From Bacteroidota bacterium (lineage in GTDB: Bacteria > Bacteroidota > Ignavibacteria > UBA10030 > SZUA-254), in contig JBIOHP010000004.1 of assembly GCA_044449065.1 (NCBI GenBank), positions 141,884 through 205,883 on the forward strand: DNA of 64,000 nucleotides, in the 5' to 3' direction. Shown piece by piece: positions 47,762 to 52,546 of the stretch. Below the pieces are notes generated by a model. That model made no database searches. It saw only the letters and a program-made list of their open reading frames with translations, and was not told where the DNA came from. Position 1 is the first letter of the stretch. Every line of letters begins with the position of its first letter. The position numbers and the translations under genes are program-made.

Positions 47762-48687
47762 TCGAGCGGCAGCATCACTCTCGTTTTCCGCCCTTTTCCT
47801 CTCCTGATCAAAAGACCATCATTTGCCAACCGTGATACGAGGTCGAGCAGCCAGGGAAGTTCCCGCGGATGAAAATCTTTTTTAATTCTTTTACCAAGCC
47901 GCAGCATCCCGATCGATTTTTTACCATTTAAATTTCTTAGCGCCTCCACGATCCTGCCGCGCCAGAACCGGCGCGGAATACCCGCATAAACAGGTTCGCG
48001 AATTGTTTTATTGGGTTTTAGATTTCTGAGCGTTTCTCTCCGTAAAACTTTTTTCGATCCGCATAATTGTTTAACAGAGCACTTGCGGCACAGGGGGTTA
48101 TGCGCTGTGCAGATGGTCGCTCCTAAATCCATGAGCGACTGATTCCATGTGTAAGCATCGGACGTCAATATTTCTTCCGCGATTTTGTGGATTTTTTTAT
48201 CGTCTAAAAGTTCAGCGTGATGTTTCATTTTTCCGTAGATGCGCGAGAGCACCCGCTTGATATTTACATCCACGACGGGCACGCTTTGTTTGAACGCGAA
48301 ACACGCAATCGCATGCGAGGTATACTCGCCGACGCCGGGAAGAGTTTTGAGCACGGCGATATCGTCGGGGATTACTCCATTATATTGCCGGACAATTATC
48401 CGGGCGATTTCACGCAACCGGACAGCGCGGTTGTTATAGCCCATGCCTTTCCATGCCCGAAGGACATCCCCCTTCGGCGCGGAAGCTAACGCATGGATAT
48501 CGGGAAATTTTTGTAAAAATTGAGGGAGCAACACTTTCACGCGGCTCACCTGTGTTTGCTGGAGCATGATTTCTGAGACAAGGATTTCATACGGGTCGGT
48601 TGTCGTGCGCCATTGCAGGTCGCGCTTCCGTCTTTTATACCAATGCAAAATCCGTGTGCGTATATCCCTGGTGAACTGTAAATTCAT
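47758..48687 (-). CDS. mutY: A/G-specific adenine glycosylase, short form without a NUDIX-like C-terminal domain
   Basis: VSEIMLQQT, WKGMGYNNRA, LPGVGEYT, VDVNIKRV, 4Fe-4S motif CTAHNPLCRKCSVKQLC; ATG at 48687 overlaps the mutT stop. Confidence 0.92.
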   Translation of the reverse strand: MNLQFTRDIRTRILHWYKRRKRDLQWRTTTDPYEILVSEIMLQQTQVSRVKVLLPQFLQKFPDIHALASAPKGDVLRAWKGMGYNNRAVRLREIARIIVRQYNGVIPDDIAVLKTLPGVGEYTSHAIACFAFKQSVPVVDVNIKRVLSRIYGKMKHHAELLDDKKIHKIAEEILTSDAYTWNQSLMDLGATICTAHNPLCRKCSVKQLCGSKKVLRRETLRNLKPNKTIREPVYAGIPRRFWRGRIVEALRNLNGKKSIGMLRLGKRIKKDFHPRELPWLLDLVSRLANDGLLIRRGKGRKTRVMLPLE

Positions 48688-49073
48688 TTTTCCTCCATTA
48701 GCATAGAGATAACGTGGCGGTTGCCTTCGAGGATATCGTACGAGACCAGTGATTCGATGGGCGCCCACTCGCATTGTTCAAATACCCGGTTCCTGATATT
48801 GCCAGCGTATGATTCAACTTTATAATAGAATACATCGTAGATGCCGCTGTCGGGATATTCGTACTGCCGGCGATGGTACAGGGGACCGATAGTCGCGGCG
48901 ATACCGAGTTCTTCCTCAAGCTCGCGGCGGAGGCATTCTTCCAGCGGTTCGCCGTTTTCCACCTTGCCGCCCGGAAATTCCCACTTCAATCCGTACCGCA
49001 TTGTTTTTTTCCGCTGGCAAAGGAGCGCTTTGCCGTCCTTCACGATAATACCGACTGCAACTTTAATCATCAC
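48684..49073 (-). CDS. mutT: NUDIX hydrolase, 8-oxo-dGTP diphosphatase
   Basis: WEFPGGKVENGEPLEECLRRELEEELGI; first gene of the operon with mutY and ogg. Confidence 0.85.
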   Translation of the reverse strand: MMIKVAVGIIVKDGKALLCQRKKTMRYGLKWEFPGGKVENGEPLEECLRRELEEELGIAATIGPLYHRRQYEYPDSGIYDVFYYKVESYAGNIRNRVFEQCEWAPIESLVSYDILEGNRHVISMLMEEK

Positions 49074-49180
49074 AATAAGATACGGAAAGACGGAGGGAAA
49101 AACAATGGAGGGAAAATTAACTACCGTTCATTTTATTCAGTTTGAGGTTAAATTATCCTGATATCTAAAAACAAAAATAA

Positions 49181-49966
49181 TTAATGATCCCATGACCTTC
49201 GTTCAATTTCCTCTTCGCGATGTTTGATACAGGATAAACAAAGTCTAATTGAGGCATCTAATCCCTTAGCATTGCCGATGTAGATTTCATCGCTATCACT
49301 AATATAGTAAGTCCCTTTGCAATACTCGCATTCCACAACTTCTTCCTTATGACCACAAACGTAGCAAGTACATTCATCATCTTGGATTACAAAAGCTTCC
49401 CACCCACAAGCATGACATATCCAGACATATTTTTGGTCTATATTGTTTTGTTCCATCAGCAATTGAGCTCGATTGAAAATTTCATTTCCATATTGATTAA
49501 TTGAAATAGCTTCTTCCCATAGATCATTGGGTATGTAATAATGAAGATCCTGTTCGAAGTGATTTTGATGAAAGTCAGAAAGGAACCCTAACAGAATAGC
49601 AAAAACTGGTTTAAATATTTGAACGGAAACATCGATTTCAAAATGGACAATGATATTTCTCCACTCAGAAGCCTTTTCAATCGCATTTAAATCTTCTTTT
49701 TTAAACTCAACCTTCGCAATTTGTTGAAGTCTTGAAACAGTTTGCATTAACGTGGTGGTTTTCTTTGGGTTATCAATTTCTTTATAAATAAGGATTGGAT
49801 GTTCACGACGAAGTCGTTCTTTCAAAATTAACTCAATTGCCTGGACGAGAAATAAGATAGCGAAATGCCACTGTGTCGGATCCTTTTCGGCAAGAATTGC
49901 TTTAGAAAGTGCTTCCTTTGTAAAGCTATGACTGTTATCGAAAAGGTTGAGTTTCAATTGAGACAT
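49181..49966 (-). CDS. HEPN-domain protein with C-terminal double zinc ribbon
   Basis: AIELILKE helix, RNIIVH (Rx4H), four CxxC pairs (CHAC, CYVC, CEYC, CLSC); AT-rich. Confidence 0.7.
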   Translation of the reverse strand: MSQLKLNLFDNSHSFTKEALSKAILAEKDPTQWHFAILFLVQAIELILKERLRREHPILIYKEIDNPKKTTTLMQTVSRLQQIAKVEFKKEDLNAIEKASEWRNIIVHFEIDVSVQIFKPVFAILLGFLSDFHQNHFEQDLHYYIPNDLWEEAISINQYGNEIFNRAQLLMEQNNIDQKYVWICHACGWEAFVIQDDECTCYVCGHKEEVVECEYCKGTYYISDSDEIYIGNAKGLDASIRLCLSCIKHREEEIERRSWDH

Positions 49967-50310
49967 TATTTATTGATCTTATTTATATTATATTGATGAT
50001 GTATAATACTCTGAGTAATTTGTTCAGGTTCTCTTGATGTAACATTAAAACCATCTAAATCATACAAACCAATTTAAGTAAAATAATAAATTCATGAGTT
50101 AGTTCAAATTAGAAGACAATTCGAGGAGTTTGATTCATCCAGCCACTATCGGGTTTATTCAATAAAAATACGTGCCCTTAGAGGTTCGAATTATATTATC
50201 AGTGATGGATAGTCCATAACACTAAGCAAAAACTGTATAGCTTTTTTGATCCCTTCTCAGTACATTAACACACTGAAAATTCTTTAAAGATCGAGATTTA
50301 TGGAGATAAA

Positions 50311-51522
50311 ATGATTGGTTACATTTTTCTATCCGACAACAAGACAGAAAACGAATGCCTCCATCGTCTTTTATTTGGTACAGATCCTAAGTCATTTTCC
50401 AAATCGCCATTTCAAGAGATTAGACCTGGGGATTATCTTTTTCTTTTCAACTATGACCAGTATACAATTCGTGGTCCTTTTCGCGCTCTGACTATATGTT
50501 CAAAAGATATCGAAAAAGATGCATATAAGGATTCGCATAGCCATGGTTTCCCTTATCAAATAAGAGTTTCAGATAGTTCGATTGATCACCCAATATCTGG
50601 GGATCAATTACCCAAATCGTTAAAATTTTCGAATGGTTTTCCCCCATTTAAGATCAGTGATTCAATTTGTAATGACTTAATTGCTGCGTTAGCTAAAACA
50701 AGTAATAAAGAATTTGATATAAATTCATTATCGACATGTGCTACTTCTTCACATTATATATTCATGTGTGATGGAACAACGGGGGGACGTGTGTTTCACG
50801 AAAATCTATTCGGTGCTACGGCAGAAAAATTCAGACCGATTGTGAGTAAAATTCAAGAGGGAGATATTCTTTTCCTCTGGGTCATTGAAGAACAAAAACT
50901 CTATGGTGTGTGGAAGGCTAAATCCCGCGGACAATATAATCCAACTGCTTTTCCAGAGGCAGCAGGACGTTTTCCAGCCGTTGTTTACGCTACAAGATAT
51001 TTACAAGTTGAACCTGGATTGGAGGAAAGCATATTAAGATCCATTGTTCCATACGACAGTAAGTTTCCTCCATTATCAATTACATACGAAGAGGGCAACC
51101 AATTATTGGTGGCATTCGAAGATCTATGTTCGGGTCGCTCCACCATTCGTGAAACAAAATCTATTCAAATTGGTAAAATCCGGACTGAAGATGGTCATTG
51201 GGTTCAATCACAAGCCGAAGCTCGCATTGATGACTGGTTATTTAATCATAATTTAACCCATGCATATGAATATCGTATTCAATCGGGATATAAATTCAAA
51301 AAGAGCGATTTCTATCTTCCCACGTATCAATTATATATCGAGTTTTGGGGATTAATGGGAAATCTTGAGTATGAAAAATCTCGCGAGGAAAAGTTGCAAT
51401 TTTATAAGCAAAATAAGCTTAAACTTGTTGAGTTGTTTCCGCGGGACATTGAGATGCTTTCCGAAGTAATCGAACCAAAATTGGCAGCCTGGGGTGTTAA
51501 AGTAATTCCCGAGAAAAAATAA
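50311..51522 (+). CDS. Tandem DCD (PUA-like) domains fused to a PD-(D/E)XK/Vsr-like nuclease
   Basis: Two repeats of YIF..T..LFG..I..G..LFL..G...A..FP; C-terminal DGHWVQSQAE..YE..SDFYLP..YIEFWG..K...Y; SD GGAG. Confidence 0.75.
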   Translation: MIGYIFLSDNKTENECLHRLLFGTDPKSFSKSPFQEIRPGDYLFLFNYDQYTIRGPFRALTICSKDIEKDAYKDSHSHGFPYQIRVSDSSIDHPISGDQLPKSLKFSNGFPPFKISDSICNDLIAALAKTSNKEFDINSLSTCATSSHYIFMCDGTTGGRVFHENLFGATAEKFRPIVSKIQEGDILFLWVIEEQKLYGVWKAKSRGQYNPTAFPEAAGRFPAVVYATRYLQVEPGLEESILRSIVPYDSKFPPLSITYEEGNQLLVAFEDLCSGRSTIRETKSIQIGKIRTEDGHWVQSQAEARIDDWLFNHNLTHAYEYRIQSGYKFKKSDFYLPTYQLYIEFWGLMGNLEYEKSREEKLQFYKQNKLKLVELFPRDIEMLSEVIEPKLAAWGVKVIPEKK

Positions 51523-51685
51523 TATTATCAATATGTCTGTCAAGGTATGATATGCTTTTGATGTAGTATCAAAAGTTTGAATCTCATTTTTTATTGGACG
51601 ATTGAATTGGAAAAATTTCCTATAGCTTTTTTCCCCCCTTCTGCGTAAATTGTTTCACTGAAATTTCTCTATTATAATTATTTTT

Positions 51686-52546
51686 ATGGCTCACGCAAAC
51701 AATCCCAACGCTGATGCAATATTAGATAAAGAATATAAATGCCTGAATGCCGGGTTCGTCCGCCTTGTCGATTATATGGGCGGGGATGAATCCATCGTGC
51801 AGGCAGCTCGCGTTTCCTACGGAAAAGGAACGAAAACCGTGAATGAAGACCGTGGGTTGATTCGCTACCTCATGCGCCATCTTCACACGACGCCGTTTGA
51901 AATGGTGGAATTGAAATTTCACTGCAAGCTCCCCATTTTTGTGGCGCGACAGTGGATCCGCCATCGCACAGCCAATGTGAACGAGTATTCCGGCAGGTAT
52001 TCGGTGATGAAAGATGAATTTTACGTCCCCGAACATGAGGCCATTCATTTCCAGAGCATGCGGAACAAGCAGGGACGCTCGGAGGATGAAGTTCCGGCGG
52101 ATCAGCGGCAGCGCGTTCTCGATATTTTGCTCGGCGATCAGCGGCAAACGTATTCGCATTATGAAGAGATGCTGAACGGGGATATCTCTCGCGAGCTTGC
52201 CCGCGTCAATCTTCCTCTTGCGCTTTACACAGAATGGTACTGGAAGATCGATCTGCACAATCTGTTCCATTTTCTCCGCCTCAGGATCGATCCGCACGCG
52301 CAGTATGAAATCCGCGTGTACGGGGAAGCGATGGCGGAAATCACAAAAACGGTCGCCCCCATAGCATGGGAAGCGTTTGAAGATTATATTTTAAAATCGG
52401 AAAAATTTTCCCGTCTCGAAATGAAGATCATCACGGAATGTATCAACCGGGTGGAATTTACAAAAGAAACTTTATCGGCGAAAGGTTTAACCGGCAGAGA
52501 GGCGGATGAATTCTTAGAAAAACTAGCTAAACTGAAAAAAGAGTAA
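51686..52546 (+). CDS. thyX: Flavin-dependent thymidylate synthase
   Basis: AARVSY, HTTPFE, RQWIRHRTANVNEYSGRY, AQYEIR. Confidence 0.97.
   Translation: MAHANNPNADAILDKEYKCLNAGFVRLVDYMGGDESIVQAARVSYGKGTKTVNEDRGLIRYLMRHLHTTPFEMVELKFHCKLPIFVARQWIRHRTANVNEYSGRYSVMKDEFYVPEHEAIHFQSMRNKQGRSEDEVPADQRQRVLDILLGDQRQTYSHYEEMLNGDISRELARVNLPLALYTEWYWKIDLHNLFHFLRLRIDPHAQYEIRVYGEAMAEITKTVAPIAWEAFEDYILKSEKFSRLEMKIITECINRVEFTKETLSAKGLTGREADEFLEKLAKLKKE

Follow-up and report, generated by a model that had tools for sequence, protein, structure and literature searches.

This locus raises the question of whether a gene recorded publicly as "hypothetical" encodes a self-contained toxic ribonuclease and, if so, what that ribonuclease acts against. 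The gene lies at 49181..49966 on the minus strand of the window (the whole stretch of Ignavibacteria DNA that was analyzed, 64,000 nucleotides) and encodes 261 amino acids plus a stop codon; based on the ORF list, homologue clusters, and an AlphaFold2 (AF2) model, the product comprises a HEPN domain, a linker helix, and a predicted two-zinc module. A sequence-only reading had proposed a stand-alone toxic HEPN RNase with zinc ribbons that sense a trigger. Based on the fold, the active-site conservation, the family relation, the stand-alone status, and the mobile, defense-like behavior of the gene, we consider it likely (probability of roughly 0.75) that this is a single-protein DUF3644-type HEPN RNase immune effector directed against phages or plasmids.

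The start codon is the ATG at 49966 on the minus strand, the position at which the homologues also begin. The motifs named at the outset, AIELILKE, RNIIVH (an Rx4H motif), and four CxxC pairs, can all be read from the DNA, and all lie on the minus strand. AIELILKE (residues 43 to 50; direct reading of the DNA at 49817-49840) includes the Ex3K motif E45...K49 of HEPN helix 2 (49820..49834), which sequence and conservation identify as the source of the auxiliary acidic residue of the HEPN active site. RNIIVH (residues 103 to 108; 49643..49660) forms an R-N-x3-H catalytic motif at the C-terminal end of HEPN helix 3, as assigned from sequence, conservation, and the AF2 model. The CxxC pairs are C184/C187 (49406..49417; 100% conserved), C201/C204 (49355..49366; 99 to 100% conserved), C213/C216 (49319..49330; 98 to 99% conserved), and C243/C246, which sits at the start of the C-terminal helix (49229..49240; 89 to 93% conserved). 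The protein has nine cysteines in its 261 residues, all within the final 78. An additional cysteine near the second pair, at residue 199, is not conserved.

The AF2 model, computed with the family alignment as input, is confident for the whole protein (mean pLDDT, 92.3; pTM, 0.84). Residues 1 to 140 (49547..49966, minus strand) form the HEPN domain, an assignment drawn from AF2, Foldseek, and the Pfam and PADLOC models for DUF3644. In the model, four core helices (residues 8 to 26, 32 to 55, 90 to 108, and 115 to 137) are accompanied by an insert of a beta-hairpin and a helix between helices 2 and 3 (residues 57 to 82); Ex3K sits within the helix at 32 to 55, and the helix at 90 to 108 ends at H108. 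The HEPN superfamily has been defined by an acidic residue in helix 2, typically within Ex3[KR], by Rx4-6H ending helix 3 with a polar N, D, or H after the arginine, and by inserts between helices 2 and 3 (Anantharaman et al. 2013, PMC3710099). All of these features occur here: a helical core with a helix 2-3 insert, RNxxxH ending helix 3, and Ex3K in helix 2.

Comparison of the model with the PDB by Foldseek likewise supported the HEPN fold proposed from the letters, as the best matches were HEPN proteins. The leading match was AF_0298 (2hsb; probability, 1.00; TM score on the target, 0.72), and further top matches were Csm6' (8pe3), the toxin SO_3166 (5yep), 7bxo, and TT1696 (1ufb); the fold matches also include the HEPN toxin 7ae8. 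The E values of these HEPN matches were modest (0.03 to 1), and the list of matches was consistent. At the sequence level, querying the PDB with the protein, its family profile, or a C-terminal profile yielded no HEPN match, only generic cysteine-motif matches (rubrerythrin, PHD, C2H2, and FYVE; E ≥ 3.6e-4). What supports the HEPN assignment is therefore the fold, together with the motifs and the Pfam and PADLOC profiles. Pfam DUF3644 (PF12358) aligned to residues 37 to 142 with 27.1 bits against a gathering cutoff of 27.6, and a precomputed PF12358.14 match is listed for the same protein; other family members scored 17 to 23 bits for DUF3644, and most members escape detection by Pfam. A search of NCBIfam yielded nothing meaningful for the protein.

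The family is large. When 5.8 billion proteins were searched with a word index, 105 clusters of homologues emerged, about 260 amino acids in length (nearly all 250 to 290 amino acids, at 35 to 59% identity); they come from Ignavibacteria, Cocleimonas, Colwellia, Pseudoalteromonas, Vibrio, and many metagenomes, and in all 105 clusters the homologues were annotated as "hypothetical" or with spurious zinc-protein names. A profile search of 1.84 billion representatives returned 2,497 clusters at E ≤ 1e-3, including 242 at E ≤ 1e-30. No match to the protein was found in PHROGs or, by tblastn, among 50,697 phage records.

Conservation was measured across 206 family members of 225 to 330 amino acids. 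The Rx4H motif on which the RNase claim depended is retained among these homologues (R103 in 100% and H108 in 99.5%), and because it is near-invariant, it is more than a chance occurrence in a protein of this size. N104 is kept in 90% of the members, most of the remainder having D or H; E45 is kept in 98% and K49 in 99%. The first six motif cysteines are each kept in at least 98%, and the seventh and eighth are kept in 89 to 93%. In an alignment of 29 members, E45, K49, E50, R103, H108, and seven of the eight motif cysteines were invariant, with C246 kept in at least 90%.

Comparison with the PADLOC models places the protein near known and candidate defense families. The best match, found also in all 29 relatives compared, was to PDC-S64 (E = 2.1e-20; 71 bits), with residues 4 to 246 aligned to model positions 2 to 267 of 339; this match was judged on E value and coverage, not on PADLOC's own calling thresholds. 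The DUF3644 model matched at E = 3.9e-7 (model positions 27 to 112 of 149; 26 of the 29 relatives), and HEC-08 matched at E = 1.9e-7 with 28.5 bits (model positions 19 to 257 of 358; 21 of the 29 relatives, the best of which reached 7.8e-13). Because the PDC-S64 score is moderate and the last roughly 70 positions of that model are unmatched, the protein is, as judged from the profile alignment, a shorter and divergent subgroup of the PDC-S64 type. Its sequence similarity to HEC-08 indicates remote homology rather than membership in that family. PDC-S64 is itself a candidate family, and the match to the model of the validated HEC-08 is weak.

PDC-S64 is a single-gene candidate, one of 145 from a guilt-by-embedding screen, and was nominated through its embedding in BREX, DISARM, or type I restriction-modification (R-M) systems (Payne et al., bioRxiv 10.1101/2024.01.29.577857). 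As in PDC-S64, a single gene here encodes a HEPN head and a cysteine-rich tail. Unlike the nominating cases, the gene lies between mutT and thyX, outside BREX, DISARM, or type I R-M systems; embedding was a discovery criterion and is not a requirement for members. HEC-08 (Hma-embedded candidate 08), from the same study, is a DUF3644 HEPN protein with C-terminal zinc fingers that lowers coliphage plaquing in Escherichia coli and loses defense when H128 of its Rx4-6H motif is mutated; its authors found no solved-structure neighbor for its C-terminal part (bioRxiv 10.1101/2024.01.29.577857). The zinc module described here likewise lacks a close solved-structure neighbor. The two differ in length (358 model positions versus 261 residues), and the defense phenotype and its dependence on the histidine are established for HEC-08 only.

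The same general arrangement recurs in other described proteins. The EC042_2821/DUF3644 HEPN family has a conserved Rx4-6H motif, is fused to wHTH, REase, and zinc-ribbon domains, and occurs in R-M operons (Anantharaman et al. 2013, PMC3710099), whereas the protein studied here has no wHTH or REase domain and its gene is outside any R-M operon. DS-38 and PD-T7-4 are validated single-protein anti-phage defenses that, like this protein, combine HEPN with a zinc finger (DefensePredictor, 10.1101/2025.01.08.631726); DS-38 was compared by description only. According to the authors of that study, the zinc domains of DS-38 and PD-T7-4 differ from each other (10.1101/2025.01.08.631726), and zinc modules in this class are therefore not homologous throughout. 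Membership in PD-T7-4 was rejected, as its PADLOC model gave no match at E ≤ 1 to the protein and none among the 29 relatives.

The choice between phages and plasmids as the target is informed by Ishtar, a monogenic system with an N-terminal HEPN domain (DUF3644 or DUF4145) and an uncharacterized C-terminal domain, which causes loss of plasmid RP4 (bioRxiv 10.64898/2026.07.06.735840). The Ishtar C-terminal domain comprises beta-sheets and three helices, and the distribution of the system is patchy and associated with defense genes (bioRxiv 10.64898/2026.07.06.735840). By description only, the protein here is similar in being monogenic, in joining an N-terminal HEPN domain to a beta-rich C-terminal domain, and in its patchy distribution, so that it could be an anti-plasmid effector of the Ishtar kind rather than an anti-phage one. 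In Ishtar, however, the target is a plasmid and not a phage, the paper describes no cysteine motifs and uses the word "zinc" 0 times (bioRxiv 10.64898/2026.07.06.735840), and the family models that match our protein all come from catalogues of phage defense. We consider an effector specific to plasmids unlikely.

The architecture is thus already catalogued, in DUF3644/EC042_2821 HEPN proteins with a zinc ribbon, PDC-S64, HEC-08, DS-38, and PD-T7-4, and knowledge of this kind of system is unchanged by the finding. For a group as widespread as this one (about 2,500 clusters at 50% identity), the label "HEPN RNase with a two-zinc module, PDC-S64-like" is an improvement in annotation. The locus also adds to the one-protein HEPN immune effectors an Ignavibacteria-type example with a clean empty-site comparison.

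That comparison comes from the genomic setting. The gene shares a low-GC stretch at 49074..51685, delimited by GC and by empty sites, with a divergent gene on the plus strand (50311-51522) for a 403-amino-acid protein with two DCD domains and a PD-(D/E)xK tail. The GC of the insertion is 0.32 to 0.38, compared with 0.45 to 0.52 in the flanks, which are a NUDIX (MutT-like) gene at the end of a mutT-mutY-ogg run on one side and thyX on the other. Three relatives of the same family have mutT and thyX side by side and divergent, with 117 to 179 bp between them; the corresponding distance here is 2,612 bp. The HEPN gene was missing from all 40 examined relatives of the same family or order and turned up in 6 of the 301 genomes searched from the phylum (about 2%; E ≤ 1e-10). 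We conclude that the gene is horizontally acquired. It is the sole intact family locus in its own genome. A second, very weak PDC-S64 match on contig C6 (E = 0.0013) contains three stop codons.

This setting, together with the conserved active site, bears on whether the protein could instead be a catalytically inert or housekeeping HEPN, such as an RNA- or nucleotide-binding regulator with no role in conflict. Some HEPN families are non-catalytic binding domains (PMC3710099), and many homologue loci have housekeeping neighbors only. Against such a role stand an almost invariant catalytic set (R, N/D/H, H, and Ex3K), absence from all of the close relatives and sparse presence in the phylum sample, a GC content foreign to the flanks, and sites that are empty in relatives. 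An inert or housekeeping protein is, in our judgment, extremely improbable.

The shared islet also invites the suggestion that the HEPN protein and the DCD-DCD-PD-(D/E)xK nuclease together make up a two-gene system. The two genes are the sole occupants of the low-GC insertion, diverge from a common intergenic region of 344 bp, and both match PADLOC candidate families: the HEPN protein matches PDC-S64, and the PD-(D/E)xK tail of the DCD protein is like PDC-S69 and HEAT_CxxC_PD-DEXK. Yet no DCD-nuclease homologue was found near a family member in any of the 31 other loci, PDC-S64 and PDC-S69 are both single-gene candidates, and a 51-nt direct repeat brackets the DCD gene only, which suggests that this gene arrived by a separate insertion event. 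A two-gene system, which we consider very unlikely, was rejected given the lack of co-occurrence at other loci. Across 32 loci we found no shared neighbor family except for synteny between close relatives; the gene is therefore stand-alone, as had been claimed, and unlinked to the DCD nuclease elsewhere.

The neighbors seen at individual loci agree with an immune effector that moves among genomes. Beside family members, two Marinomonas genomes carry PDC-S46 and Pseudoalteromonas carries PD-T4-7; a Myxococcota genome has a type IIG R-M enzyme there, and a Desulfobacteraceae genome has an HD-CE/GHKL protein. The closest homologue adjoins an AAA and Endonuclease_NS pair beside an IS3-family transposase. 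Conjugative plasmids of E. coli and Serratia bear distant relatives (26% identity; PDC-S64 scores of 84 to 92 bits), on both plasmids in a module that includes a resolvase and a DUF6530 gene; on the Serratia plasmid, a Tn3-family transposase lies alongside. Insertion at this site, patchy presence, and defense-type neighbors in several loci are in keeping with the defense role first proposed.

Mobility of this kind would also fit a protein that stabilizes mobile DNA without conferring immunity: a selfish toxin, an addiction module, or a toxin whose antitoxin (such as a small RNA or an auto-inhibitory tail) is unrecognized. HEPN domains are common toxins of toxin-antitoxin systems (PMC3710099), SO_3166 and 7ae8 are among the fold matches, and the plasmid-borne relatives lie beside Tn3-type transposition genes. 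HEPN-MNT systems (SO_3166/SO_3165, PDB 5yep) share the HEPN fold and the Rx4H RNase site with our protein, which differs in having a linker helix and a zinc module and in lacking an MNT or other conserved partner. The earlier statement that no MNT gene is adjacent was correct, as the neighbors are the NUDIX gene and the DCD-DCD-nuclease gene, and HEPN-MNT membership was rejected on this ground. More broadly, the 32 loci contain no MNT or other conserved neighboring ORF, and the 344-bp upstream gap contains no small ORF, tandem-repeat RNA, or Rfam match. Scans of 48500-52000 for Rfam families, tandem repeats, and terminators were all negative; they pointed to no RNA antitoxin and allowed no promoter to be placed. 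In addition, the gene here is chromosomal, within a 2.6-kb islet that has no mobility gene, and HEC-08, the architecturally closest tested protein, defends against phages. We regard a selfish toxin as quite unlikely and favor an immune effector.

As an immune effector, the protein would act through residues 1 to 140, which are predicted to be a metal-independent HEPN endoribonuclease with an active site formed by R103, N104, and H108 at the end of helix 3, together with E45 and K49 of helix 2. By analogy with other HEPN RNases, two protomers would pair their Rx4H motifs and so complete the active site. A long linker helix (residues 147 to 173; 49448..49528, minus strand), which joins the HEPN domain to the C-terminal part in the AF2 model, would bear the eight-cysteine, putative two-zinc module. 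Because the module contains a variable loop and is swapped for another domain in a sister clade, we infer that it is the recognition or control element, which may bind a protein or nucleic acid from the invader, or the RNA target itself. Such binding would set when or on what the RNase acts, and RNA cleavage would then stop the propagation of phages and possibly of plasmids. This compact member of 261 amino acids, with its confident model, is a handy subject for two questions: what keeps a single HEPN protein silent before infection, and what the zinc module recognizes.

The C-terminal part had been described as a double zinc ribbon. The eight-cysteine module with its four CxxC pairs is present (residues 181 to 261; 49184..49426, minus strand; presumably binding two zinc ions, as assigned from the conserved cysteines and a model of the domain), whereas "ribbon" is only one description of it, the best of its weak fold matches being to FYVE-type fingers and eS26. 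In the whole-protein AF2 model, the cysteine module is beta-rich and precedes a C-terminal helix at residues 244 to 260; residues 172 to 261 folded alone gave a pLDDT of 92.6. The best fold matches in the PDB were the FYVE-type fingers of Vps27p, rabphilin-3A, RUFY, endofin, and EEA1 and the ribosomal protein eS26, all of them weak (E ≥ 0.02; TM score, 0.34 to 0.56), and none is a close solved neighbor. In profile searches against the PDB, the end of the linker helix and cysteine pairs 1 and 2 aligned weakly with the helix-plus-rubredoxin tail of rubrerythrin (E = 0.003), and pairs 2 to 4 aligned weakly with PHD and FYVE fingers. Sequence comparison hints that zinc ligation may be sequential, with pairs 1 and 2 forming one site and pairs 3 and 4 the other.

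The spacing between the cysteine pairs (13, 8, and 26 residues) and the C-terminal helix resemble those typical of FYVE fingers, which combine eight cysteines in four CxxC pairs with a basic, phosphoinositide-binding RRHHCR motif. A FYVE assignment was nevertheless rejected, as no such basic motif precedes cysteine pair 2 and all scores were below threshold; Pfam FYVE appeared, also below threshold, in one relative only.

Between cysteine pairs 3 and 4 lies a beta-hairpin loop (residues 217 to 242; 49241..49318, minus strand) that, based on column entropy, is the most variable part of the family (mean, 3.28, versus 1.4 to 2.2 in the HEPN core helices). Its length is mostly 17 to 41 residues across members. 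In a sister clade, the HEPN head is kept (residues 1 to 160 of our protein) and is followed by a different Cys/His domain, CHDC...H...C...C...CPRC...CxC. More speculatively, the module of eight cysteines, carried by a helix that resembles a lever, may be an invader-recognition domain of a kind not described before, in which the hairpin at 217 to 242 would bind one particular protein or nucleic acid of a phage or plasmid and thereby license HEPN dimerization. The different domain of the sister clade would then mean that zinc sensors are exchanged as cassettes. The subfamily would, in that case, differ from HEC-08 in its trigger specificity and perhaps in how it is activated. We offer this proposal tentatively and consider it doubtful, if worth entertaining. 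A word-based search with the C-terminal region alone returned two proteins.

The HEPN-zinc gene (49181-49966, minus strand) and its divergent neighbor (50311-51522, plus strand) occupy a low-GC stretch between mutT and thyX. In three relatives from the same family (loci L042, L043, and L040), mutT and thyX are themselves divergent neighbors separated by only 117 to 179 bp, providing a clean empty-site comparison for window positions 49074-51685. A conserved stretch adjoining mutT, AAGATACGGAAAG...GGAAAAACAA, is still present at 49076-49106.

The product of the neighboring gene combines two DCD (PF10539) domains with a nuclease at its C terminus, the latter matching the PADLOC family models PDC-S69 (E value of 2e-29) and HEAT_CxxC_PD-DEXK. 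This gene is flanked on both sides by a 51-nt direct repeat (50236-50286 and 51621-51671), the copies of which are identical at 39 of 51 positions, versus 34 in the best of 60 Markov shuffles. Each copy lies immediately 5' of a start codon, one that of the DCD gene and the other that of thyX. Because the CAGTACATT motif found upstream of thyX in the relatives is kept in the copy preceding the DCD gene, insertion of this gene seems to have duplicated the native thyX leader, which in turn suggests that the single mutT/thyX gap received two separate insertions. Across the neighborhoods of 32 loci, no other HEPN family member was found to adjoin a homologue of the DCD gene.

The HEPN head of the protein also occurs with a different tail. 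Nine proteins of a sister clade (P0181, P0184, P0188, P0198, P0212, P0221, P0232, P0235, and P0241) share the head, corresponding to residues 1 to 160 of the query, and have at the C terminus a different Cys/His domain (signature, CHDCG..G.LH...CD.E.CPRC..Q...C.C), which was not recognized in a Pfam search.

Distant HEPN-zinc relatives (26% identity; 84 to 92 bits against PDC-S64, the PADLOC model that best matches the HEPN-zinc protein) were located on two conjugative plasmids, Escherichia coli pEc631_2 (NZ_CP040265.1) and Serratia pJSRIV004_1 (NZ_CP074141.1). Both plasmids carry a conserved module consisting of a resolvase, DUF6530, a hypothetical gene, and the HEPN-zinc gene; a Tn3-family transposase adjoins the module in the Serratia plasmid, and an AIPR-family gene lies near it in the E. 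coli plasmid. Among viral predicted structures in BFVD, the only match to the full-length HEPN-zinc model was A0A8S5V3T9 (Siphoviridae sp. cttKr9, 302 aa; E value of 7.8e-4 over 232 aligned columns). Based on this structural match, at least one phage or prophage carries a similar HEPN-zinc architecture.

On one metagenome contig (L005, 4612-7759), a family member and an unknown 114-aa ORF separate the DUF58 gene of a MoxR/DUF58/BatA-type operon from its MoxR-type AAA gene. In L052 (5535-9147), an AAA-ATPase and Endonuclease_NS gene pair follows the closest homologue (59% identity), and genes for an IS3-family transposase and a large TPR protein precede it, a neighborhood that looks like a small defense or mobile cluster.
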